Below, piece by piece: positions 3,932 to 32,945 of a stretch of 64,000 nucleotides of DNA. Source of the stretch: a virus; the UHGV virus genome UHGV-1366919; one strand, 5' to 3'. The notes beneath the pieces were generated by a model. That model saw only the letters and a list, made by a program, of their open reading frames with translations. It made no database searches and was not told the DNA's origin. Numbering within the stretch: position 1 is the stretch's first letter; every line of letters starts with the position of its first letter. A program made the translations under genes and the position numbers.

Positions 3932-5011
3932 TCATTTTATCTGAGCCAGTTTTATTAAACCAGAGATACCAGATACAGTATTTTCCAATATAAAAGATTC
4001 TGAAATTTCATTTAACTTTTTTGCAATAGCAATATCATTAAAATCTTTATATTTTTCTCCATACTCTTTTGGCCAAAGGAAAACTTGTTCATTTTCTTCT
4101 AATAAAATTCGACTTTTTTCTCGAGCTGCCTCATCTTGATATTGAGAATCAAGTACCCAAATTCGATTTAATAATAAAATCTTATCTAATTGCTCTTCTT
4201 GAATACCTGAAAAAAGTGTGCGAGAAGTAGTAATACCTCCTATGGCTAAACCATTCTTAACAAAACAAGAATCAAATGGCCCCTCAAAAATATAATAATT
4301 TTCTTTATTATAATCAAGGTTTCCCAGATTAAAAACAGATTTAACTCCATTTAATTTGGACAAATATCTTATATTAGAAGCCCCTGTTACATCTCGAGAC
4401 TGATAATACACTATCTTTTGCTTTTCATCATAATATGGAATAATCAATCTCCCGTAATGAATCTTATCCTTTAATGAAGTAAACCAAGATTTTGGCCGAT
4501 TAATTGCTTTATAAAGATTCCGATTAATCAAATAATGTAAACAAGTCTTAACAACTAAATTATTTCGATAATAACCTATTTGTTGAGGATCACAAAGATC
4601 AATAGGATCTTTGGGCAATGAATCATCCTCCGGAACTATTTCTTCAATAATATCTTTAACTTTATTTTCAAAATATCCGCCGCCTAAATCAAGATAATCG
4701 TAATCATTACTTCTTATTTCATCAAAAATCTCATAAGAAGTCATTCCTGATACTTCTTTAATCCATTTTAATGGGCGAGATGACCAGCCGCATCGATGAC
4801 AATAAATTAAATTCTTATCTGGAAGATAAAAACAACGTTTTATTTTACCTATTCCAGTATCGCCTTCTCTACAAATTGGGCAGGAACAAGAATAATTATT
4901 ATTCCCTTGATTATATTGGGCAAAATATCCTAAATCAAAAAACTTCTTAATAACATACTCTTGCGGGAGTTCATTATTCTGTTTCGAAGTCGAAGAGGGA
5001 GGAAATAACAT
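3932..5011 (-). CDS. gp61: DNA primase (T4 gp61-like, DnaG-type)
   Basis: N-terminal zinc finger CSCPICREGD...CHRCGWS followed by a TOPRIM-like region. Positioned in the replication module next to rnh. Confidence 0.7.
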   Translation of the reverse strand: MLFPPSSTSKQNNELPQEYVIKKFFDLGYFAQYNQGNNNYSCSCPICREGDTGIGKIKRCFYLPDKNLIYCHRCGWSSRPLKWIKEVSGMTSYEIFDEIRSNDYDYLDLGGGYFENKVKDIIEEIVPEDDSLPKDPIDLCDPQQIGYYRNNLVVKTCLHYLINRNLYKAINRPKSWFTSLKDKIHYGRLIIPYYDEKQKIVYYQSRDVTGASNIRYLSKLNGVKSVFNLGNLDYNKENYYIFEGPFDSCFVKNGLAIGGITTSRTLFSGIQEEQLDKILLLNRIWVLDSQYQDEAAREKSRILLEENEQVFLWPKEYGEKYKDFNDIAIAKKLNEISESFILENTVSGISGLIKLAQIK

Positions 5012-23361: not shown

Positions 23362-24543
23362 TCATTCCGCAATAAAAACCTTATTTCCTACATCCCATAT
23401 CCGGTCCCAACCGTTTGCACTCATATTTTCATATTCAGATAATTTAAGATCAAAATAATTCAAAAGACGCGGTAATTTATGTTTTTGAAATTGAACTCGG
23501 CTTTTTCGTTGAAGAGAATTATCTTTAAAATAAAAGTAATTCGGGTCAGCATCATGAATCTCCTTAAATCCAATTTGTCGATAAAGCTGACCTTGGGACC
23601 ATCGACGATCGGCATATGTAATTACACTGCCTGCATTATTTCTACGAAAATATTCAAACAACTTGGAAGCTCCTCCAATTACTGTAAAATTAGCAACTGT
23701 ACAATAGCGAATCAGTTCATAATCATATTTCTTGTTAAACCTGGATTTATTAAAAGTCATTACAGCCACCATGCGATTCTTATAAAATAATCCCAGATTA
23801 ATGGAAGAAGCGTAAGTTCCTTGAATATGATATTTTAAAATAAATGGCTTAACTTGCTGATAAGTCAATTCGCGAACTTTACATTTACGAGCATAGATCT
23901 TTCCGGAAGTAATTCCAAGAAGATGACGAATACGGGCCTTAACAATCTGCGGCTTCAATTCCCATTCATCTTCGAATACATGAATTAACCGTACTCCTTT
24001 TTCTTCACACTTATTTGTTTCAGTCAAATGGTACCGTTTAGTAAATCCATTTCGTTCACAATGTCCTGAAAGGGAATCAAACTCAAAAGCAATCTTCTTA
24101 TCTGGAATATGAATAGCAATAGTATAAGGAGCTGCTAACTCTTTATCATTCTCAATAATCCGGCCATTATAAACACTTTTAATATAATTTATAAAATTAT
24201 TATAAGACTCAGGGTTAGATACCGGCTCAACAATAGGAGCTGGTTCTTTTTTAGAAGACGTGGAAACTTTTTTAATTTTTTCCTTCTTTTGCTTTGGTTC
24301 TTTTGGAGCTTTGGACACTTTAGGCTCTGTATTTTTCCTTAATGCTTCAATAGCACATTGCCTGCATCCATACTTGGAACGTATAAAATGCTGGGTTAAA
24401 CAAAAGAAAGATCCATGATCCTTGCAAATAATTTCAACCGGTTTCCTGTTACTTTGATAATCAACTTTAGAGTAATCAAATTGATCTCCAAATTTTTCAA
24501 GGCAGAATTTAATAAAAGCTTCCTTACGTTGTTCTTTTTTCAT
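23362..24543 (-). CDS. Putative homing-endonuclease-like protein: Zn-ribbon repeat + Vsr/DUF559-type PD-(D/E)XK domain + extra C-terminal domain
   Basis: N-terminal FGDQFDYSKVDYQ...IICKDHGSF...GCRQC repeat unit. Central IAFEFDSLSGH nuclease-like motif. C-terminal ~200 aa with a GNAT-like V-x-G-G-A-S-K-L motif. Paralogous to 24565..25875 and 48934..49863. Confidence 0.5.
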   Translation of the reverse strand: MKKEQRKEAFIKFCLEKFGDQFDYSKVDYQSNRKPVEIICKDHGSFFCLTQHFIRSKYGCRQCAIEALRKNTEPKVSKAPKEPKQKKEKIKKVSTSSKKEPAPIVEPVSNPESYNNFINYIKSVYNGRIIENDKELAAPYTIAIHIPDKKIAFEFDSLSGHCERNGFTKRYHLTETNKCEEKGVRLIHVFEDEWELKPQIVKARIRHLLGITSGKIYARKCKVRELTYQQVKPFILKYHIQGTYASSINLGLFYKNRMVAVMTFNKSRFNKKYDYELIRYCTVANFTVIGGASKLFEYFRRNNAGSVITYADRRWSQGQLYRQIGFKEIHDADPNYFYFKDNSLQRKSRVQFQKHKLPRLLNYFDLKLSEYENMSANGWDRIWDVGNKVFIAE

Positions 24544-24564
24544 AGAATGAATATAACTAATTTC

Positions 24565-25875
24565 TCAATTTTTAAAGGTGCGCAGATTACACACTTTATT
24601 TTTAGTATGTATCTTGGTAAACAACAAATTTTCTATAGATTTTCTATTATTTTTCCAGTCTCTTTCTTCGACATTTATTAGTAGAATATTTGCTTCTTTA
24701 CAACGCCTTTCCTTTTCGGCATGACAGCCAGGCTGTCTTTCTTCTTTAAGTTTATGCCAGTGAGATCCATTATATTCAATGCCAATTCTTAATTCGGGAA
24801 GAAATATGTCAAGCTCCATTCTTCCTATTTGAGTCTTATCATTTTCAAGAACTTCTCCCGAATAAATTGACTTAATATATGCACAAACTTCTTTTTCTCC
24901 TCTAGATGTCTGTTTAGATAAGGCACATATTGGACAACCTTGTTGAAGATACCAATGACTAGACGGTATTTGTTGAAATACTCCGTGTACAGGACATATG
25001 ATATTAACCTTAGAATGTGCGTTTACATAATTTACTAAAGAATAATCATATTTTTCTCCATGAACTTTTCTAGACCTCTTAATAAATTCATCAATTGTTA
25101 ACTTTTCAAAACCAAAACATTTAGGACACCCTGAGCCATTTAAATGACTATTTGGTTTTTGCCAAAAAATACCATGTTTAGGACAAATAATTGATATTTT
25201 TTTCTGAGAATGCTCATAACTTACTTGAGAATAATCATAAAGAGTACCATGAACTTTTCTTGCTTTCTGAATAAAATCTTCAGTCGTTACTAACTCTTTA
25301 TTTCCACATTTTGGACAACCACACCCATTAAGATGGGAATTAGGTGTTTGCTGAAATATATGTCCACACTTTTTACATTTAATTTTTACCTTAACTTTAT
25401 TACCCTGGTAATCCACTTCAGAATAATCAAATTTATCACCGTGTACTTTACTAGCTTTTTCAATAAATTCTTTAGTTGTAGATTTATTGTTATTAGAGCA
25501 AAAAGGACATCCAAAACCTTTCATGTGGCTTTGTGCCTGCTGTTCAAATATATGCCCGCATTTTTTACATTTAATTTTTACTTTAAGCTTATTGCCTTGA
25601 TAATCTACTTCAGAATAATCAAATTTATCGCCATGAACTTTTTGGGACTTTTCAATAAATTCTTTAGTTGTTAGCTTCTTAACACCAGCACATTCTAAAC
25701 ATCCGCATCCCTGGACATGGCTATAAGCTTTTTGCTGAAAAGAACCGTGAATAGGACATATTATTGTTATGACATTATGAGCTCCTGTATAAAAAGTCTC
25801 AGAATAATCATATTTGTTTCCATGAACCTCTGTACATTCTTTAATAAATTGCTCATTTGATTTTAATTTTGCCAT
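24565..25875 (-). CDS. Putative homing-endonuclease-like protein: six tandem Cys/His zinc-ribbon repeats + Vsr/DUF559-type PD-(D/E)XK nuclease domain
   Basis: Six copies of about 45 aa, VHG(D/N)KYDYS.V.Y......KV.I.C..HG.F.Q....H..G.GCP.C. C-terminal ELDIFLPELRIGIEYNGSHWH (D..E.DG..H motif of the Vsr/DUF559 endonuclease fold). Confidence 0.55.
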   Translation of the reverse strand: MAKLKSNEQFIKECTEVHGNKYDYSETFYTGAHNVITIICPIHGSFQQKAYSHVQGCGCLECAGVKKLTTKEFIEKSQKVHGDKFDYSEVDYQGNKLKVKIKCKKCGHIFEQQAQSHMKGFGCPFCSNNNKSTTKEFIEKASKVHGDKFDYSEVDYQGNKVKVKIKCKKCGHIFQQTPNSHLNGCGCPKCGNKELVTTEDFIQKARKVHGTLYDYSQVSYEHSQKKISIICPKHGIFWQKPNSHLNGSGCPKCFGFEKLTIDEFIKRSRKVHGEKYDYSLVNYVNAHSKVNIICPVHGVFQQIPSSHWYLQQGCPICALSKQTSRGEKEVCAYIKSIYSGEVLENDKTQIGRMELDIFLPELRIGIEYNGSHWHKLKEERQPGCHAEKERRCKEANILLINVEERDWKNNRKSIENLLFTKIHTKNKVCNLRTFKN

Positions 25876-25916: not shown

Positions 25917-26477
25917 TTAATCTTCTGAATCTTCTTCCGGTCTTACATAAATTGGAGCGTCTGCGCATTGAATAAGTTCCGGATATTTTACTTCCCTATA
26001 TTTTTTAACTTTTTCAGCGTGCTTCTTTTCATTTTTTATGATTGCACAGAAGGACCAGTAACAGATTTGCGTCCAAAAACTGAAAGCCTTAGACCCATAA
26101 TTCACACTCCATTTCTTCCCACGCAGTGCGGTCATACATTTAATGAGAGCACTTGAAATCATTTCATCTTTATAAGAATAACGGCTAAAGCTCGAAGACC
26201 TTGCTAAACCTTGCGCAATCTTAAGGAAACATTCCGCGATGTAATTCATATTCGGTTTATCGCTGTCCTCAACTTCATAAAACCTTTTAATTGCCGCGTC
26301 AAATTTAGCCGAATCTACATAATAGTCCTCTTTTTTAGTCTTTCCTCGATTCTGAACAGTAATAAACGCCCTTTTCTTATTCGGATCATTCAGCATTTCA
26401 CGCTTTTTATCCAAATCTTCAGGCGGACGTGTTTTAGTAGAAGGCTGTACAAATTGTTCTTTATTAGCTTCAGTCAT
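25917..26477 (-). CDS. gp55: Late-transcription sigma factor (T4 gp55 family)
   Basis: IAQGLARSSSFSRYSYKDEMISSALIKC aligns with T4 gp55 [30 protein letters not shown]. 186 aa versus 185 aa for T4 gp55. Confidence 0.75.
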   Translation of the reverse strand: MTEANKEQFVQPSTKTRPPEDLDKKREMLNDPNKKRAFITVQNRGKTKKEDYYVDSAKFDAAIKRFYEVEDSDKPNMNYIAECFLKIAQGLARSSSFSRYSYKDEMISSALIKCMTALRGKKWSVNYGSKAFSFWTQICYWSFCAIIKNEKKHAEKVKKYREVKYPELIQCADAPIYVRPEEDSED

Positions 26478-26500
26478 GTTAATTCAATTATAATACAACT

Positions 26501-28003
26501 TTAGGCCTTTAGGCCAATTATTTTAAAAGGAATCTTTTCTTGCTCATATAATTTGATACGTTCATCTCTATGCCTTAACGCATATTTTGTATTGGGAATT
26601 ATATCGATAACCCGGGCAAGAGTTTTATTTTCCTTTAAACGCAGTATTCGTCCGATGGATTGAATTATTCTTACATTGCTTTTTCCAATCAAACCAGGAA
26701 ATACAATATTATGCAAATTTTTGATATTGATACCTGTTGAGAATATTGAAGCTTGAGCAATTAACAAAATATTGTTTTCTTTTTCCAATTGCTCCTTAAT
26801 ATCGGTTCGTTCTTCAATCGGCACCTCTCCTTGAATAAAGTAAACTTTTCTATTCGGATCGGCTTCTTTAAATTTTTGCAGAAGATTTTCCCCATGAATA
26901 ATCCTATTGACCAAAATTAAAGTATTATTGCTTAATTTTGAAACAATAGAAGTAATAGTTGAGTTAAACTGGTCATTATTGCTCAACCATTCGGTTTCTT
27001 CCATGAATCCAAAAGGCCTTTTAACACCTTCATCATCCAGGACATAAGTCGGAATATCATTTAATTGAATATTAATTCCAAAAGTTGAAACCTGCGTCAG
27101 GAATTTATCTTTTCTTAATTCTGCAGAAGGCAGTTCAAATCTTACAGGTCCAATTTTGCCTAAGATTGACCATTTGTCATGTTTATCATGTGGTAATGTA
27201 CCTGTGAAGCCATATCTTAACTTAGCCGGAAGATCTGCGATAATCTTAGAAATTTTATTATTGGCCTTAATTGAATGAACTTCATCGATGATAATACAGT
27301 CAAATTTTTGTATCTCTTTTTTAAGGTCATCATACTGGGCTCTGAGAATACTTGCTCCGCAAATAACGACTTGTGATTTCTTATCGAAAGGAATATTTGA
27401 AAACCATTTGGAAATAGAATATTTGAAATTCTTTAAATGCGAAGAAATATCATTAAAAGTCTGATTGGCCAAATCAGGAAAAGGACAAACCAATAAAACT
27501 TTTCTGGCTAATTTATTCTTAAGAATATTCCGGATTAATAATGCGCAGCATACTGTCTTGCCCGCTCCTGTTCCTAAAATATAAATACCGTTTTGCTTAT
27601 TAAGGGCAATTTGCATCGATTCTTTTTGATAAGGCCTGACTTCTGATCCTTTATCATCAATATAAATGTTCTTCGTATCAAGAACTAAATCATTGCTCTG
27701 AATATATTTTTTAATGCCGTCATCTAATTTAAATTTAACAGAACGATCATAAAATGTATTCTTAACAAATGCAAGTATGTCTCGTAATAATCCGATTTCA
27801 AATTCACCGGACATTTTAATGCAAGATTTCTTAATATATTCTTTACTCGGTTGAATTTTGATGCCTTTTTGACGACATCTCTTGACATACATATGATTTC
27901 GTTCAACTGTAGAAAAATGATCTCTCAATTGTTCATAAGCATCAAAGTACTCAAATATAATCCTACCAAGATTATTTGATGTTCTGTTGATTTCGATAAT
28001 CAT
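26501..28003 (-). CDS. uvsW: SF2 DEAD/DEAH-box helicase (T4 UvsW-like)
   Basis: Walker A LGTGAGKT and DEVH box IIDEVHS. 500 aa, comparable to T4 UvsW. Confidence 0.65.
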   Translation of the reverse strand: MIIEINRTSNNLGRIIFEYFDAYEQLRDHFSTVERNHMYVKRCRQKGIKIQPSKEYIKKSCIKMSGEFEIGLLRDILAFVKNTFYDRSVKFKLDDGIKKYIQSNDLVLDTKNIYIDDKGSEVRPYQKESMQIALNKQNGIYILGTGAGKTVCCALLIRNILKNKLARKVLLVCPFPDLANQTFNDISSHLKNFKYSISKWFSNIPFDKKSQVVICGASILRAQYDDLKKEIQKFDCIIIDEVHSIKANNKISKIIADLPAKLRYGFTGTLPHDKHDKWSILGKIGPVRFELPSAELRKDKFLTQVSTFGINIQLNDIPTYVLDDEGVKRPFGFMEETEWLSNNDQFNSTITSIVSKLSNNTLILVNRIIHGENLLQKFKEADPNRKVYFIQGEVPIEERTDIKEQLEKENNILLIAQASIFSTGINIKNLHNIVFPGLIGKSNVRIIQSIGRILRLKENKTLARVIDIIPNTKYALRHRDERIKLYEQEKIPFKIIGLKA

Positions 28004-28140
28004 TATAATTCAATTATAACGTAAAATATTCAAAATTGATCAAAAATTATTCAAATAATTTAATATTAATAACTTAAATTACACAATATTTATTTGATTT
28101 TAATATAATTTATTTAAATTTAATTAATTATATCAAATAT

Positions 28141-28182
28141 AATTGGTATACTGGTCTCGCGCGCGGGAGGAGAATACCAATT
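28141..28182. repeat. Hairpin with an AT stem AATTGGTAT/ATACCAATT enclosing a GC-only loop containing CGCGCGCG
   Basis: Read directly from the sequence. It lies in an ORF-free, extremely AT-rich region. Confidence 0.6.
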
Positions 28183-28301
28183 ATATTTTAATTATATTCA
28201 ATTATATTTTAATTATAATAAAATTATTTTGAAATTTATTTTCAAAATTTTAATTTTATTTTCAAATTTATTTTGAAATTTGAAACATACGAACTTATTA
28301 A

Positions 28302-28321
28302 GGGGTACGCGCGCGTACCCC
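28302..28321. repeat. Perfect 20-bp palindrome GGGGTACGCGCGCGTACCCC
   Basis: Self-complementary. Central alternating (CG)4. A second GC hairpin, GCGTGC-AGC-GCACGC, follows at 28350..28364. Confidence 0.7.
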
Positions 28322-28384
28322 ACATAGCCCATTAGGGCAATATTCATAAGCGTGCAGCGCACGCTTTCTACTTTATATTTAATT

Positions 28385-28470
28385 AATTAAATATAAATAA
28401 ATATTTATTTATATTTAAATTATAATATAAAATATTAAAAATAATTTAAAATAATTTAAAATAATTTAAA
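28385..28470. repeat. AT-only palindrome ATAAATAAATATTTATTTAT, containing TATAAATA on both strands, followed by three tandem 10-bp iterons AAAATAATTT
   Basis: Direct reading. Iterons at ~28438..28470. Confidence 0.6.
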
Positions 28471-28489
28471 ATATTAAAAATTTTTTCTA

Positions 28490-28521
28490 TGCGCGCCCGC
28501 GCCCGCACACACGCGCACACG
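28490..28521. repeat. GC-only alternating purine-pyrimidine tract GCGCGCCCGCGCCCGCACACACGCGCACACG, potentially Z-DNA-forming
   Basis: Direct reading. A 32-nt stretch with no A/T run, in a ~30% GC genome. Confidence 0.6.
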
Positions 28522-28636
28522 AAATCACCGAGCGCTGTTTTGGAGGTTTAACCAAATAGATAATTGTCTAATCCGAATAAGATTTGAATAAGTACATTTA
28601 TTATCAGGATCTCTTCGGTACTCTATGGATAATAAA

Positions 28637-28670
28637 AAACCAATCTGACTTATAGAAATCAGATTGGTTT
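28637..28670 (-). terminator. Putative terminator for the minus-strand gene 28786..29184
   Basis: 12-bp perfect inverted repeat AAACCAATCTGA / TCAGATTGGTTT with a 10-nt loop. An A-run lies on the plus-strand left side, which is a U-run in the minus-strand RNA. Confidence 0.45.
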
Positions 28671-28785
28671 CGACAATTTATTTTTAAAATCTCCTGGAGA
28701 ATTATTTTAAATTCTTTTACCCTCCAGGTAGTAAAGTACAAGCCTAAAAGTTTTTAAAATTTTCTAGATATTTTTTAGAATTAAA

Positions 28786-29184
28786 TTACAGAACTTGAAG
28801 CTGCATGATCTCGACGATGTTCTTAACGTCATTCGTAATATAGGCGAAGATCTTTTCGACTTTATTCAAATATTCAACCAGCATCTTTTGATCTTCGATC
28901 TCTTGAGTAATTTCCTGCATAGGCTTGGTATTGGCAATAACATTTTTCATAGAAGCAGTAGACATTTGAACCAATGGCTCCTGCTTTTCAAGGGCAGTTT
29001 TTTCAAGAGCTTTCTTCTTTCGTTCCAATCTATTGAGTTCCTGTGTTTCTAAAATCAGCTTTGTTACCCAATAATGTTTTCTTTGAGGAATTTCAAAAGA
29101 TTTTTGCTGAATAACCATTTCATTTAATTTCAAATCTTCAGCAATTTCTTTTGAGTATTGTTCGAGTTTTTCTTGAGGTGTCAT
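28786..29184 (-). CDS. Hypothetical coiled-coil protein
   Basis: 132-aa ORF. The opposite-strand ORF 28795..29052 looks like F/L-rich antisense noise. Confidence 0.4.
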   Translation of the reverse strand: MTPQEKLEQYSKEIAEDLKLNEMVIQQKSFEIPQRKHYWVTKLILETQELNRLERKKKALEKTALEKQEPLVQMSTASMKNVIANTKPMQEITQEIEDQKMLVEYLNKVEKIFAYITNDVKNIVEIMQLQVL

Positions 29185-31004: not shown

Positions 31005-32945
31005 ATGCAAGAATTTACAAAAATTTTACAAAATATTGAGCTAATTCAGGAAGCTCAAAAAAGAAAAGATCCTGTTCTTAATGTAGTAACATTATTCAGT
31101 GGAATGGGAGCTCCGGAAATTGCCCTTGATAAATTGGGAGTCAAATACAGGATTGTTCTGGCATCTGATATTGATCCAGAGGCTGAAGCAGTTTATAAGC
31201 AACTTCATGGTAAAAAACTTGCTAAAGGAAATGATTCATTTATTCCGAATGTTTATGATGTTTTAGACCAGGTTGAACCTTCAAAGCTTAGCGCAGATGT
31301 TTTAATTGCAGGATTTTCTTGCCAGGCTTTTTCTTTATCTGGTAAACAATATGGCATTTATTCTCGTCAAGTAAAACCTGAAGGATCCAATAAAAAATTT
31401 GTCGTCAATATTAAAAGGCATTTAACTGATATTAATGGAGATACTGCAATCACTGTTAATAATGATGAATCTGATCCTTTACCTGAAGGACTTCCCGAAG
31501 GAACTAAAGTAACTATTTCTCCAGATTCTGACGGTAAGCTGGCATTTCAAACATTAAAGATTGCCCAAACATTAAAGCCAAAAGTTATTATTCTTGAAAA
31601 TGTTTCTACTTTTGGCCAGGCTGATATTGAAGATGAAGATGAAGTTCCTTCTGAATTTATTACAGAAGAAAAAGAAATTAAAGTAATTCAATCCAGACTG
31701 GGACAATCTGGAAAAGTAGACATATCTGAAGGAGGTTATTTGAGACTCCTTGGAAAGATTTTCAATACTATTGGATATAGTTTTTATCCAATGTACCTTG
31801 ATCCGACTTCTTATACTAATTCCGTAATTCGTCGTCCACGAATTTATATCGTTGGTATTCGAAATGATATTGAAGCAGGAATTAATCCAAATAAATTAGA
31901 AGCTTTTGATGATAAGATGGCAACTAATTTTGGATTGAACACCACTAAATCCGAAAAGGATTATCAAAAGCTTTTGGACAAAACTTTGAACTACATTATG
32001 AGTTCAAAGTATTCTCATGGCTATATGTCCAAAAATCCTCGAGAACTTGTTAAAGGTTTAGTCTCTAAATTTGGCATTAATAGATTTGCAGAAGCTACTG
32101 ACTATATCTTTAATAAGCTTGTTAAAAATGGAAGTGTTGATCCCAGAAACCTTCAATTAAATCAATTTCAGTATGATTCTAATGTTATTGATAAAGAATT
32201 TAATGATCCTCAGGTTATTAAATTCTTCAAGAAAATCAGAAGCGAACAGCAACCTGTAATTTTGGATGTATCTGAAAAAAGCGATACTGTTGATTATCTT
32301 TCTACTGTTTTAGCGGAAGGTATTTCTGGTTATTTTGAAGAATATAGCGGTAAATTTACTATTGATAATCCGCAAGGTAAATTAAATTTAGACTTTGGAA
32401 CTAAACCCGCAAAACCAAAGGTTAAGAAAGAAAAACCATTGGTTCAGGGTGAATTGGATCTTGACTATGGGGAAGATCCTTTGGGACAAGTAGTTCAAGA
32501 AGCTTTAGGAAAATATAATAATCAAAAAGTTGATGAAATTGCTATTAAGAAATTTAAAGAAATCATTGCTAAGAAGTTATTGACCCAATTTCTTTTAAAT
32601 TCTTATAATAAACGTAATTTAAGTTATATTCCTACAATTCTCAAGAATTCATCTATTCCTATGAAAGTCGGAGGAGTTGGCAATGCAAACTACTTTATTC
32701 TTCGTAATAAATCCGGACAGTTTAGCTGGGGATATATTCATCCGGCAATTTTGATGAAGTTGATGGGAATGTATTATAATTCAAGTTCCGGAGATGATTC
32801 AATTTATCAAAGTATAGCAAAAACAAAACTTGCAAATGGCCGTCCGATTTCAGTTAATGGAATTATTCGACGAATTGGTAATTCAATGAGTGTAACAGTT
32901 CTTGAAAAATTATTCAAATCGCTAATTTCAATGAAAGCCCTATGA
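31005..32945 (+). CDS. C5-cytosine DNA methyltransferase (orphan; no cognate restriction endonuclease seen)
   Basis: Motif I LFSGMGAPE, motif IV GFSCQAFS (PCQ-type), motif VI ILENVSTF (ENV), motif VIII RRPRIYIVG, motif X RRIGNSMSVTV. A long variable region lies between motifs VIII and IX. Confidence 0.75.
   Translation: MQEFTKILQNIELIQEAQKRKDPVLNVVTLFSGMGAPEIALDKLGVKYRIVLASDIDPEAEAVYKQLHGKKLAKGNDSFIPNVYDVLDQVEPSKLSADVLIAGFSCQAFSLSGKQYGIYSRQVKPEGSNKKFVVNIKRHLTDINGDTAITVNNDESDPLPEGLPEGTKVTISPDSDGKLAFQTLKIAQTLKPKVIILENVSTFGQADIEDEDEVPSEFITEEKEIKVIQSRLGQSGKVDISEGGYLRLLGKIFNTIGYSFYPMYLDPTSYTNSVIRRPRIYIVGIRNDIEAGINPNKLEAFDDKMATNFGLNTTKSEKDYQKLLDKTLNYIMSSKYSHGYMSKNPRELVKGLVSKFGINRFAEATDYIFNKLVKNGSVDPRNLQLNQFQYDSNVIDKEFNDPQVIKFFKKIRSEQQPVILDVSEKSDTVDYLSTVLAEGISGYFEEYSGKFTIDNPQGKLNLDFGTKPAKPKVKKEKPLVQGELDLDYGEDPLGQVVQEALGKYNNQKVDEIAIKKFKEIIAKKLLTQFLLNSYNKRNLSYIPTILKNSSIPMKVGGVGNANYFILRNKSGQFSWGYIHPAILMKLMGMYYNSSSGDDSIYQSIAKTKLANGRPISVNGIIRRIGNSMSVTVLEKLFKSLISMKAL

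Follow-up and report, generated by a model that had tools for sequence, protein, structure and literature searches.

The 782-nt gap (28004–28785) between the minus-strand genes uvsY and uvsW is a composite, fast-evolving non-coding module restricted to an uncultured family of ~200-kb T4-like phages from gut metagenomes. At a probability of about 0.3, the module is best read as a T4 oriF/oriG-type origin primed by transcription, or as an unwinding site of that type, composed of a promoter and an unwinding element. A role at the RNA level is nearly as likely. To our knowledge, origins of T4-like phages are known for T4 alone and have no recognisable signature. The conserved and conspicuous module beside uvsW in a very abundant gut phage lineage would provide a concrete, testable origin candidate. 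The window, the whole stretch of 64 kb analysed here, is part of a ~201-kb genome, and candidate origins might also lie elsewhere in that genome.

Composition of the gap between uvsY and uvsW

The upstream neighbour (28786..29184, minus strand), left unnamed in the original prediction, encodes a UvsY homologue of 132 aa (PHROG 231, UvsY-like, E = 5e-8), and its distant homologues with 35% identity carry the Pfam domain PF11056 (UvsY). The downstream neighbour (26501..28003, minus strand) encodes a UvsW-type helicase of 500 aa (PHROG 16, E = 5e-65) with ResIII, DEAD and Helicase_C domains, ~32% identical to cyanophage UvsW. The PHROG matches thus show that the two neighbours are indeed uvsY and uvsW. 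uvsY is the first gene of a minus-strand replication and recombination cluster. The cluster headed by the locus includes a primase, a gp32-like SSB, a gp41-like helicase, a DNA polymerase and a gp46/47-like nuclease besides uvsW and uvsY. A 145-aa protein without assigned function, a SegE-like nuclease and a methyltransferase are also encoded nearby.

The gap is the largest non-coding stretch in the window, as had been claimed for an ORF-free locus of ~780 bp; the runners-up are 283, 191 and 184 nt (nucleotides 1–1287 belong to an ORF running off the end and were excluded as a gap). No ORF of at least 60 aa is seen in 28004–28785, and no frame stays open for more than 57 codons under the standard code, or 88 with TAA as the sole stop. 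A real gene across the region, raised earlier as an objection, is ruled out, since no ORF appears under any of four genetic codes (standard, TGA-recoded, TAG-recoded and TAA-only).

On the minus (sense) strand, the module is arranged from 5' to 3' as follows: the uvsY stop codon, a conserved 3' segment, a strong terminator, island 3, a 115-bp A/T block, island 2 with three GC hairpins, AT repeats with an extra -10-like motif, island 1, another AT stretch that melts easily, the proximal promoter-like motif of uvsW and the uvsW ATG. The conserved segment directly 3' of the uvsY stop (28672..28785, minus strand) contains the hairpin CCTGGAG...CTCCAGG at 28693–28728. Its identity is 97–100% in strains whose uvsY coding sequences are 92–97.5% identical. 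A terminator scan places a strong intrinsic terminator at 28630..28671 (minus strand; DNA fold z = -7.8), which ends the uvsY transcript. Its stem of 15–16 bp is followed by TTTTTT (16 pairs and then TTTTTTATT for 28671..28636, minus strand) and is invariant in all strains; the assignment as a terminator concerns this part of the locus alone. Because the hairpin is symmetric, the plus strand gives a stem as well. The next segment (28540..28629, minus strand) is of ordinary composition, and in strain alignments the haplotypes begin to diverge here. It contains a weak, non-conserved -10-like sequence, TGATAATAAAT, at 28587–28597 (minus strand), read directly from the sequence.

Three islands are present, as proposed, but islands 1 and 3 are not GC-only. 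Island 1 (28135..28190; fold z = -5.1 to -5.7) consists of a GC-rich top (CTCGCGCGCGGGAGGAGA on the plus strand) closed by an AT stem of 15 bp. The stem recognised earlier, in which AATTGGTAT (28141) and ATACCAATT (28174) enclose CGCGCGCG, is real and extends to these 15 bp. The strain L029 has two substitutions in island 1, one of which changes a U-A pair to U·G on the minus (sense) strand. Island 2 (28300..28368; fold z = -3.9 to -5.3) consists of three adjacent hairpins. The first and the last had been described before: the perfect 20-bp palindrome GGGGTACGCGCGCGTACCCC at 28302–28321, whose centre is TACGCGCGCGTA, and AAGCGTGC-AGC-GCACGCTT at 28348–28366. Between them lies an additional small hairpin, GCCC-ATTA-GGGC, at 28327–28338. 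On the plus strand the last hairpin is followed by a T-rich tail, TTTCTACTTTAT. Only one substitution, outside the stems, is seen in island 2 of the window-type strains. Islands 1 and 2 fold at z = -3.9 to -5.7 on both strands.

Island 3 (28487..28539, minus strand) is G+T-rich on the sense strand by composition and partly alternating in purines and pyrimidines. The 32-nt GC-only alternating tract claimed here does not exist as such: the positions 28490–28521 are composed of A5 C17 G9 T1 with two CCC interruptions, and 18 nt (28504–28521) alternate strictly. Island 3 does not fold as a hairpin (z = -1.1, -0.1 and -0.13). Its GGCGCG unit occurs twice in this island and once in other strains, a length polymorphism. 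All three perfect palindromes of at least 20 bp in the window (28302–28321, 28372–28397 and 28388–28417) sit in the gap, as do two of the three GC-rich alternating purine/pyrimidine runs of at least 12 nt.

One or more small non-coding RNA genes could be considered here, either on the minus strand (28672–28785 plus the terminator) or on the plus strand, as ~80 nt covering the hairpins of island 2 and ending at the T-rich tail after 28366. The region 28636–28785 is more conserved than the uvsY coding sequence (7 differences per 750 nt versus about 88 per 2010), the island 2 hairpins are stable, and TTGAAA-17-TATTAA can be read from the sequence just upstream on the plus strand. Such a promoter, however, would start transcription within the first hairpin. 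Perfect palindromes give no strand information, island 2 is absent from another allele (L008/L030), and the conserved 3' segment may be just the 3' UTR of uvsY. The best match to Rfam is STnc300, with 27 bits against a gathering score of 80. Small RNA genes are thus unlikely.

The A/T-only block of 115 bp (28372..28486) is the least stable duplex in the window and contains the AT palindromes at 28372–28397 and 28388–28417 and a 10-nt tandem array at 28422–28481. Over the 64 kb, duplex stability is lowest in three 100-bp windows beginning at 28374, 28043 and 28201, and the weakest reaches -86 kcal/mol versus a mean of -121.3 +/- 7.0. The second least stable one falls in the AT-rich stretch upstream of uvsW (28019..28134), where the window is nearly invariant relative to L029. 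Repeat analysis also finds AT-rich repeats with a period of 11–12 at 28183..28299 and a 21-nt duplication at 28178–28217.

The AT dyads and three exact copies of AAAATAATTT (28438, 28448 and 28458) are present as described, but their reading as iterons does not hold. The copies belong to a degenerate array of about six units with 86% matches, whose copy number differs among the strains L005, L012 and L029. The array is not conserved in relatives, and no recognisable initiator gene lies beside it in the 64-kb window. Short direct repeats at ~10–12 bp spacing in an AT-rich region are shared with iteron origins of the T4 oriE type or of plasmids, from which the locus differs in its A/T-only, degenerate and strain-variable repeats. 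A link between iterons and origin activity is unproven even in T4 (PMC3016281).

The exact sequence TATAATTGAAT is seen three times in a motif scan of the 64 kb, always on the minus strand. One copy (28008..28018) is 15 nt upstream of the uvsW ATG and another (26482–26492) is 15 nt upstream of the gp55 start codon; this equal distance is consistent with a promoter role. The proximal copy, as a putative promoter, implies a nearly leaderless uvsW mRNA. The third copy (28196..28206), inside the gap, is -10-like and points to island 1 and uvsW. It shows no defined -35 or MotA-type element, and the terminator lies upstream of island 3.

Variation among strains and relatives

The same sequence, including the GC islands, recurs in the independent assemblies L003–L007, L009 and L029, and the locus is found in at least eight independent assemblies. 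The islands are therefore not an assembly artefact, as had been feared. An index of the assembly collection places the identical UvsY protein in 2146 blocks, which marks a very abundant gut phage lineage. In the allele of L008 and L030, ~370 bp including islands 1 and 2 are replaced by unrelated AT-rich sequence. This allele has a different hairpin, GCACGC-GA-GCGTGC, and no island 2. Islands 1 and 2 are thus dispensable, since they are absent from an allele of the same species. Island 3 is the sole island found in every allele. The gap of the L030 allele holds three copies of TATAATTGAAT, two of them on the opposite strand. Comparison of the two alleles of the window species rejected the idea that they are mutual inversions.

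The locus is a recurrent assembly breakpoint, and contigs often end here. The broken contigs end at scattered points in ~28100–28522, one of them in Nextera adapter sequence, and not at one defined position as expected for a genome terminus. Contig L011 has an odd tail without any other match. Seven contigs of 201–205 kb carry the locus at arbitrary internal positions, and hence it is not a fixed genome end. A telomere, a cos end and a pac end were all rejected, with contigs running through the site and scattered break points. N15-type protelomerases act at telRL palindromes with a central TACGCGCGTA. The GC-rich hairpins and palindromes of the locus, with the TACGCGCGCGTA centre, resemble such telRL sites and the ends of IS200/IS605 elements, and IS605-family elements are inserted at this site in relatives. 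Contigs from at least eight samples run through the 20-bp palindrome, which indicates that it is not a genome end, and no similarity to the ends of the co-resident elements is seen.

In marine relatives, uvsY abuts uvsW without any gap. In all of the gut relatives examined (UvsY identity 55–68%), uvsW adjoins a gap in which GC islands are set in A/T-only DNA. The style of the gap, a GC or alternating tract followed by A/T-only repeats and then GC hairpins, is kept in L013, L015/16, L014/19/20, L036 and L160/161 despite UvsY divergence of 32–45%. The persistence of the gap in gene-dense phages argues for a function. The unit stays with uvsW in spite of upstream insertions (a 65-aa ORF, a 200-aa ORF, TnpB, and TnpA plus TnpB), and also in a lineage with an inverted uvsW-gp55 block.

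The opposite view is that the gap is largely a functionless hyperplastic spacer, in which only the uvsY terminator and the uvsW promoter function. It would be composed of simple sequence made by slippage (A/T-only VNTRs, CG/TG or hexamer micro-repeats) and of scars left where mobile DNA was inserted and deleted time and again, which headful packaging would allow to remain. The copy number of the 10-nt and 6-nt units varies between strains, and one allele is replaced wholesale. Divergence peaks in the AT blocks, with 12–26 differences per 100 nt versus about 3–4 in the flanking genes. The locus of L020 contains a (TATTA)n microsatellite with a scaffold gap, and the site is a hotspot for IS605/TnpB (IS200/605) insertion and allele replacement and has taken up extra ORFs several times. 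All of this, together with the frequent contig ends, would be expected of a spacer. However, GC-rich islands should decay fast in a background of 0–10% GC, yet they are kept in every lineage, as is the non-coding gap itself in all gut lineages despite their gene-dense genomes. The near-identity of a central island in three genomes of a sister clade, and compensatory, strand-specific changes in the arms around it, are also difficult to reconcile with a spacer. A spacer is accordingly a possible but rather doubtful explanation. If it is correct, the locus nevertheless identifies one hyperplastic site within a replication module whose synteny is otherwise kept.

In this sister clade, the outer islands form an inverted repeat of 33–43 bp with A-runs on both sides. 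The arm duplex is calculated at -50 to -65 kcal/mol on the sense strand versus -34 to -55 kcal/mol on the antisense strand, being 5–22 kcal/mol more stable on the former. The helix contains 27 G·U cells versus 3 A·C cells, and five pairs show compensatory changes in four lineages, although alternating tracts pair promiscuously and 67–71% of the cells still pair with the partner slid by two columns. The compensatory changes and the 27:3 excess of G·U over A·C indicate that the helix folds on the mRNA-sense strand. Helices of at least 30 bp with compensatory or G·U changes are found in L014, L019, L036 and L160. At ~40 bp with its G·U pairs, the helix closes a loop of 180–450 nt on the sense strand upstream of uvsW. 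Its right arm comes to within 20–45 nt of the uvsW ATG, a -10-like motif is absent from the interval, and therefore the right arm must be included in the uvsW transcript of these phages.

The central island is near-identical in L014, L019 and L160 though the arms differ, and it has one orientation in all six sister-clade genomes. Homology between the central islands of the window species and the sister clade is marginal (p about 0.02–0.05 before multiple-test correction) and was not accepted. Island 3 is the probable counterpart of the left arm, based on sequence resemblance; it shares TCGTG[TG]CGCGTGTGTGCG with L162 and L014. No long-range helix is present in the minimum-energy fold of the window, where island 1 resembles the right arm weakly.

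An origin or an RNA element upstream of uvsW

In T4, oriF and oriG are composed of a promoter and an A+T-rich DNA unwinding element (DUE), and R-loop formation is not sequence-specific (PMC3016281). The active origins lie near strand-switch regions, and UvsW unwinds R-loops (PMC3016281). The locus resembles these origins in several points: it belongs to a T4-like phage, lies in the uvsY/uvsW neighbourhood, has very A+T-rich and easily unwound DNA by promoter-like motifs and a strand switch close by, has no need for a conserved sequence, and UvsW is encoded alongside (PMC3016281). The three least stable 100-bp windows and the 115-bp A/T-only block represent the A+T-rich DUE. The main divergence of transcribed strands is at 29184/29212, ~400 bp from the locus; a strand switch is a tendency of origins, not a requirement. 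The original prediction of an origin retains its AT unwinding element, supported by the -10-like motifs and by the position at the head of the cluster near the strand switch, and loses its iterons. The cumulative GC skew has its minimum at 29148. This was rejected as independent evidence for an origin, because the skew tracks gene orientation and not position.

If the locus is an origin of this type, RNA polymerase would start at a -10-like motif in the gap, or read through from upstream, and transcription into the gap would result in an untranslated RNA. The G-rich RNA of an island could anchor an RNA-DNA hybrid, and the neighbouring A/T-only block might melt like a DNA unwinding element. Hairpins on the displaced sense strand could hold the bubble open for primosome loading, and UvsW, encoded immediately downstream, might later remove the R-loops. 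An R-loop from a sense transcript displaces the sense strand, on which the sister-clade helix forms. An origin of the T4 type needs only a promoter and an unwinding element, and so the origin reading would tolerate the sequence turnover seen here.

Several facts count against the origin reading. A strong terminator lies just upstream of island 3, with no convincing conserved promoter between them. The -10-like motifs in the AT-rich repeats may be mere duplicated sequence. Islands 1 and 2 are replaced in the L008/L030 allele, and the sense-specific helix of the sister clade is explained at least as well by RNA folding. The locus also differs from T4 oriF, which is ~100 bp at the uvsY promoter and 5' coding region with a MotA-dependent middle promoter. 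Here, 782 bp of non-coding DNA are located 3' of uvsY, not at its promoter; no MotA box is recognised, and the locus has GC hairpins and purine/pyrimidine tracts, which T4 origins lack.

The main competitor is an RNA-level cis element for uvsW, in which the GC islands work as RNA hairpins or long-range helices in transcripts toward uvsW. It could insulate uvsW from upstream early transcription by termination. Alternatively, it could be a double-stranded "processing stalk", an RNase III-type substrate, that keeps the uvsW message separate, unstable or masked until its proper time. The sense-stabilised helix of the sister clade, with its right arm inside the uvsW transcript, agrees with this explanation, and so do the attachment of the unit to uvsW through insertions and the uvsW-gp55 inversion, and the strong terminator after uvsY in the window. 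In T4, moreover, uvsW is kept late-only (PMC3016281).

On the other hand, uvsW in the window has its proximal promoter-like motif 15 nt from the ATG, so that the islands would lie outside the uvsW mRNA. The window fold contains no long-range helix, and islands 1 and 2 are missing from another allele. RNA folding accounts neither for the variable repeats within a pure A/T stretch of 115 nt nor for the purine/pyrimidine alternation, and C-to-T mutation pressure with a strand bias could imitate the excess of G·U. In rRNA operons and at intercistronic sites of T7 and lambda, long-range processing stalks and RNase III sites are known. The ~40-bp G·U helix of the sister phages, closing a 180–450 nt loop just upstream of a gene, resembles them; a difference is that the window species has at most a degenerate form of the helix, and that A/U-only repeats instead of a functional RNA make up most of the loop. 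For a structured non-coding RNA, as suggested in the original prediction, the sense-strand helix of the sister phages is the one direct comparative support, and no Rfam family corresponds to it. An RNA-level element is on balance a tentative reading close in strength to the origin. The strand-specific helix of the sister phages is a clean case for distinguishing RNA-level structure from structure of displaced-strand DNA.

As a more specific and rather improbable version of the origin reading, it can be speculated that the module is a self-limiting R-loop origin placed directly before the gene for the helicase that dismantles R-loops, with firing and shut-off coupled in one module. An untranslated sense transcript would hybridise at the G/T-rich island, while the A/T-only block melts. 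Hairpins would lock the displaced sense DNA open, a role that in the sister phages could be played by the ~40-bp G·T-tolerant helix, and UvsW from the adjoining gene would erase the R-loop. A G·T-tolerant helix on the displaced strand would explain the strand-specific pairing in the sister phages. If true, this origin architecture would be new among T4-like phages and convergent with the yeast mitochondrial ori. In the latter, which is transcription-dependent, a promoter is followed by a G-rich block, ~200 bp of A/T and small inverted GC blocks (PMC5726470); as at the locus, A/T-only stretches part the GC blocks, within a very AT-rich genome. The order of a G-rich block, ~100–200 bp of A/T and inverted GC blocks in the ori/rep sequences of Saccharomyces mitochondria corresponds to island 3, the 115-bp AT block and island 2. 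The likeness is architectural only, since the mitochondrial sequences are multi-copy, about 270 bp long, served by other replication machinery and without sequence similarity to the locus.

Known elements and recognition sites

The locus has no match among known RNA families, repeat families or mobile-element ends. Covariance-model searches with Rfam 15, as proposed originally, were run with gathering and with E-value thresholds on the window and the loci of 10 relatives and gave no match at threshold; STnc300 was the best sub-threshold match. ARAGORN found no tRNA or tmRNA in the window. GenBank phages contain no DNA match to the locus in near or distant mode, and IMG/VR contains no relatives of the sister-clade UvsY. 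The palindrome has no hit in IMG/VR, and its three hits among 185,579 species genomes of GTDB are all in high-GC Streptomyces, at chance level. A 14-mer scan of IMG/VR returned random hits only. The further copies of the islands for which a search had been suggested are not found elsewhere in the 64-kb window. A dispersed repeat, PeSL or MITE was rejected, as blastn of the locus against the window gives low-complexity AT matches only. A CRISPR-repeat mimic or mini-array was also rejected; there is no regularly repeated GC unit, and island 3, which bears only a loose resemblance to a type I-C CRISPR repeat, has no repeat hairpin.

PeSL (promoter-early stem-loop) cassettes of T4-like hyperplastic regions are short and present in many near-identical copies that mediate recombination. 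The locus is similar to them in that it combines promoter-like and stem-loop sequences between genes of a T4-like phage, where DNA has been inserted, deleted and replaced (PMC4122927, PMC2839356). It is dissimilar in that no second copy of any island or hairpin is seen in the 64-kb window.

A mobile or invertible element is very unlikely, whether a foldback (MITE-like) element, an IS200/605-derived palindromic element or an inverton. The sister-clade units are bounded by the 33–43 bp inverted repeats with flanking A-runs, the CTTTCTTTCTTTATATATTTCTTTCTTT block of L013 and L015 is reversed in L036, and copies of TATAATTGAA have the opposite direction in the L030 allele. The site shows activity of IS605-family elements, and assemblies break here. 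However, neither the 64-kb window nor the retrieved loci contain a second copy of any island, and the window has no long inverted repeat. The invariable orientation of the central island in the six sister-clade genomes, the alleles of the window species, which are not inversions of each other, and the chance-level hits of the palindrome also argue against such an element. Orientation differs between distant lineages only. Inverted repeats are confined to the sister clade, and no recombinase was identified. Remnants of IS605/TnpB ends (PATE) and an omega-RNA were rejected by the lack of similarity to the TnpB elements of L005, L008 and L018; the ends of the TnpA+TnpB element of L162 were compared by eye only.

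A cluster of protein recognition sites is similarly improbable, be it for a C5-cytosine methyltransferase, homing nucleases, the terminase (pac) or a type II topoisomerase preferring alternating purine/pyrimidine DNA. No positive evidence was obtained for the packaging site or the methylase or nuclease sites proposed earlier. Contigs run through the locus, and no motif is common to the islands of different lineages. Islands 1 and 2 are dispensable within the species. Some observations are nevertheless compatible with recognition sites. A large C5-methyltransferase gene lies 2 kb away and is directly beside uvsY in the sister phages, and the gap-less marine relatives are also without a methyltransferase gene at that position, a co-occurrence based on two clades only. 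CGCG, otherwise rare, and GCGC are concentrated in the gap; 9 of the 23 CGCG sites of the window are found here and 14 in the other 63 kb. C[CT]CGC[AG] hexamer repeats are shared by island 3 and the sister-clade central island.

Structure of the uvsY–uvsW gap

The gap between uvsY and uvsW (28004–28785) is a lineage-conserved, structure-dense non-coding module that evolves rapidly. Its limits are the uvsY terminator on one side and a promoter-like motif close to uvsW on the other, and it contains the most easily unwound DNA of the window. At 782 nt, it is the largest non-coding stretch inside the window, whose GC content is 32.3%. A minus-strand cluster of T4-like replication and recombination genes spans ~3.9 to 29.2 kb and encodes a primase, an RNase H-like exonuclease, a gp32-like SSB, a gp41-like helicase, DNA polymerase and gp46/47-like nucleases, along with two HNH/DUF723 homing endonucleases. 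The cluster end holds the minus-strand genes for a gp55-like late sigma factor (25917–26477), a UvsW-type helicase (26501–28003) and a UvsY homologue (28786–29184). Rightwards of 29212, the genes are mostly on the plus strand, including those for a SegE-like nuclease, a C5-methyltransferase, a second helicase, the portal and tail proteins.

As originally predicted, the locus is ORF-free: no long open frame is seen in the gap under any stop-codon reassignment. The three predicted elements, island 1 (28135–28190), island 2 (28300–28368) and island 3 (28487–28539), are also located as described. Islands 1 and 2 are true dyads, which fold on either strand as RNA or DNA (z = −3.9 to −5.7), and island 2 consists of three adjacent hairpins. 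Island 3 is not a hairpin (fold z about −1 to 0). Its description as a GC-only, alternating Pu/Py tract of 32 nt has to be corrected, as the composition of 28490–28521 is A5 C17 G9 T1 and strict alternation is seen in 18 nt only.

All three perfect palindromes of at least 20 bp in the 64 kb, nine of the 23 CGCG sites and two of the three GC-rich alternating runs of at least 12 nt in the window fall in the gap. The three least stable 100-bp duplex windows are also here, at −86, −93 and −99 kcal/mol vs −121.3 ± 7.0. This clustering is far from chance. The independent assemblies of the strains L003–L007, L009 and L029 carry the same sequence, and thus the GC islands are not assembly artefacts, as had been considered. 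Assemblies break repeatedly in the gap: three of ten ENA/JGI contigs, four of six metagenome-collection records and both IMG/VR contigs stop within it, at points scattered from about 28100 to 28522. The end of contig L010 (about 28150 of the window) is Nextera adapter sequence (CTGTCTCTTATACA). In the relative L020 the repeat is a (TATTA)n microsatellite not crossed by the scaffolder, with a run of N inside it at 4778–4877. The gap is unreliably assembled in public records of these phages.

On the sense (minus) strand, a 114-nt segment directly 3′ of the uvsY stop is followed by a hairpin of 16 pairs and a T-run (28671–28636), read as the uvsY terminator. The 150 nt after the stop (28636–28785) show 7 differences in 750 nt among strains vs about 88 in 2010 nt of uvsY coding sequence, and this non-coding DNA is therefore better conserved than the gene. 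It comprises a hairpin at 28693–28728 in addition to the terminator, and could function as a 3′ UTR or as a small RNA. Divergence of the strain haplotypes begins at about 28575. Island 3, G+T-rich on the sense strand, precedes a pure A/T block of 115 bp that includes two perfect AT palindromes and a tandem array of 10-nt units. Then come the three hairpins of island 2, AT repeats with a period of 11–12, island 1 (a 15-bp AT stem with a GC top) and about 115 bp of AT-rich DNA. The last element is the motif TATAATTGAAT, 15 nt upstream of the uvsW start codon.

The exact 11-mer TATAATTGAAT has three copies in the window, each on the minus strand, with one ahead of gp55, one ahead of uvsW and one inside the gap at 28196–28206, just upstream of island 1 (~0.4 copies are expected by chance, as estimated from base composition). 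TATAAT[AT] is seen 13–15 nt before several replication-type genes (e.g., 5928, 17025, 26492 and 28018, minus strand). TTTAAATA[TC] is seen 14–17 nt before the portal and other structural-side genes (e.g., 41875 and 47716, plus strand; 2538 and 35475, minus strand), where four of its eight occurrences are placed. No Shine–Dalgarno sequence is visible at the genes with these fixed-distance upstream motifs. We infer that both motifs may be −10-type elements of nearly leaderless mRNAs, and the two classes are candidates for early/middle and late −10 elements, respectively. If uvsW has its own proximal promoter in this way, the islands would not be an obligatory part of the uvsW mRNA in the window species.

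Variation among strains and relatives

Window-type strains differ in the copy number of the AAAATAATTT unit, in further AT indels, and in the GGCGCG unit of island 3, present in one or two copies. Between the window and strain L029, there are 12–26 differences per 100 nt in the AT blocks and about 3–4 in the flanking genes. Island 2 has identical stems in the two, and island 1 has two substitutions, one of which turns U-A into U·G on the sense strand.

A second allele is found in the strains L008, L030 and, partly, L027. On the uvsY side it matches the window across island 3 and into the first AT repeats, as far as about 28397, and the two agree again from about 28023 on the side of the uvsW promoter. 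Between these points, roughly 370 bp are replaced by unrelated AT-rich sequence, which has another hairpin, GCACGC-GA-GCGTGC, and carries TATAATTGAA three times, twice on the opposite strand. Because this allele replaces islands 1 and 2, these are dispensable, and island 3, kept by both alleles, is the constant element. The short repeats of the gap are variable and unconserved and no initiator was found in the 64-kb window, contrary to the iteron origin suggested in the original prediction.

The window has no DNA-level match to GenBank phages, and the closest cultured UvsW proteins are those of T4-like cyanophages (~32% identity). An index of a public assembly collection lists the exact UvsY protein in 2146 blocks, and many contigs carrying it are 201–206 kb long, from ENA metagenome assemblies and one JGI metagenome. 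These facts indicate an abundant, uncultured phage of ~201 kb. Study-style sample names suggest the human gut as its habitat.

UvsY homologues show 55–68% identity in gut-metagenome lineages and about 35% in marine T4-like phages, whose homologues carry Pfam UvsY. The order SegE-like ... uvsY, uvsW, gp55-like, gp47, gp46 is kept throughout the relatives. In the marine phages there is no gap and uvsY abuts uvsW. Every gut lineage examined (L013, L015/16, L014/19/20, L036 and L160/161) has a non-coding gap of like style, with A/T-only repeats enclosing GC-rich hairpins or alternating Pu/Py tracts (477 nt in L013, 519 nt in L015/16). The gap is directly upstream of uvsW in L014, L019, L036 and L160/161. 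GC-rich alternating tracts of at least 10 nt in the relatives' loci occur almost only in the gap (e.g., L014 with 33 nt, L019 with 25 nt and L013 with 19 nt). Sequence conservation of the gap between lineages is absent apart from two blocks: CTTTCTTTCTTTATATATTTCTTTCTTT, common to L013 and L015 and inverted in L036, and TCGTG[TG]CGCGTGTGTGCG, common to island 3 of the window and, in L162 and L014, the GC tract on the left. Island 3 has tandem C[CT]CGC[AG] hexamers (28495–28506, plus strand; CCCGCG CCCGCA, one or two units by strain), and so does the sister clade of gut relatives in its central GC island (L019, about 4835–4865; CTCGCA four times, in the opposite orientation); the homology of the two is only marginal.

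Insertions between uvsY and the GC/AT unit differ by genome: a 65-aa ORF, a further 200-aa ORF (L160), a TnpB gene inside the 65-aa ORF (L018), and a complete TnpA+TnpB IS200/605 element (L162). In L037–L039 the uvsW–gp55 block is inverted, and the 717-nt gap stays on the uvsW side. In all these cases the GC/AT unit is next to uvsW. The uvsY–uvsW site is hyperplastic, and a mostly functionless spacer of this kind would fit the VNTRs as well as the replaced stretch of the second allele and the mobile elements inserted here. It would not fit GC islands that persist in near-pure A/T surroundings and show compensatory evolution, and is somewhat less likely than an origin or an RNA-level element.

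Several known systems were compared and rejected. PeSL cassettes (the promoter-early stem-loop cassettes of T4-like hyperplastic regions) would have further copies, and no other copies of the gap elements were found in the window. The gap does not test as any Rfam family, as IS605-derived ends or as a genome terminus.

Sense-strand helix and candidate origin

In the sister clade (L014, L019, L036 and L160/161), an imperfect inverted repeat of 33–43 bp has the first and last GC islands as its arms. It closes a loop of about 180–260 nt, longer in L020, where the repeats are interrupted by a scaffold gap, and its right arm ends 20–45 nt before the uvsW ATG. The arm-to-arm duplex energy is −50 to −65 kcal/mol in the sense and −34 to −55 in the antisense, and folds of the whole gap give −103 vs −82 kcal/mol in L036 and −113 vs −106 in L019. 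In the alignment of four lineages, with one sequence each, 36 pairs are 97% paired, five pairs have changes on both sides, and the pair tables contain 27 G·U cells vs 3 A·C cells. Based on these values, the helix is specific to the mRNA-sense strand. Pairing of alternating tracts is promiscuous, with 67–71% of cells still pairing after a 2-column slide of the partners, and the excess of G·U could also arise from C-to-T mutation pressure biased to one strand.

This helix and its attachment to uvsW would be fitted best by an element that serves uvsW at the RNA level, as a leader, an insulator or a processing element. The fit is poorer in the window species, with its putative proximal promoter. 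There, the long-range helix was not recovered, the minimum-energy fold consists of local hairpins throughout, and island 1 resembles the sister-clade right arm weakly. A role of the gap at the RNA level is slightly less likely than an origin, and the two are not mutually exclusive.

In the favoured reading, with a probability of about 0.3, the gap would be an origin of the T4 oriF/oriG type, and it agrees with such origins in the features that can be tested in silico. These origins are about 100 bp, form R-loops independently of specific sequence, and are active near switches of the transcribed strand, UvsW later unwinding the R-loops (PMC3016281). With no need for a specific sequence, the module could persist and yet turn over rapidly. 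The strand displaced in a sense R-loop would be the sense strand. The ori elements of yeast mitochondria, which are transcription-primed (PMC5726470), have a layout parallel to the gap: a G/T-rich block, an A/T block and small palindromes. Judged by sequence features, T4 oriF/oriG and the yeast mitochondrial ori are the systems the gap would work most like, and membership of neither is claimed. If functional, the gap would vary a known type of element. Since the GC skew tracks gene orientation, its minimum at 29148 carries no weight as evidence for an origin.

Rearrangements and neighbouring genes

IS200/IS605-family elements, either TnpB alone or TnpA+TnpB, lie at varying points around uvsY across strains and lineages (L008, 4463–5701; L018, 4587–5849; L162, 2954–4686; L005, 10064–11176), and seem to move actively in this family of phages. 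In strain L005 (9290–11838), a TnpB gene interrupts one DUF723/HNH homing-endonuclease gene. Two such genes are between gp55 and gp47 in the window (23362–25875, minus strand) and are missing in the relative L013 (7417–9119).

In the L037–L039 lineage (e.g., L038, 1707–4707), UvsY is 67% identical and the uvsW–gp55 block is inverted with respect to uvsY. Near both inversion junctions are inverted copies of about 35 nt (TTTAAAGGCnCCnAAnTCG...AATATGG), and the 717-nt gap upstream of uvsW holds three ~40-nt repeats (AAGATCTGATGAAAATTGAATGA-like).

Of a protein of 646–752 aa (window 31005–32945, plus strand; L014, 2731–4989), only the N-terminal ~120 residues match the C5-cytosine methyltransferase domain. 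All gut-clade loci examined encode this protein, which is missing at that position in the marine relatives. Its gene adjoins uvsY directly in several sister-clade loci (L014, L019, L036 and L160).
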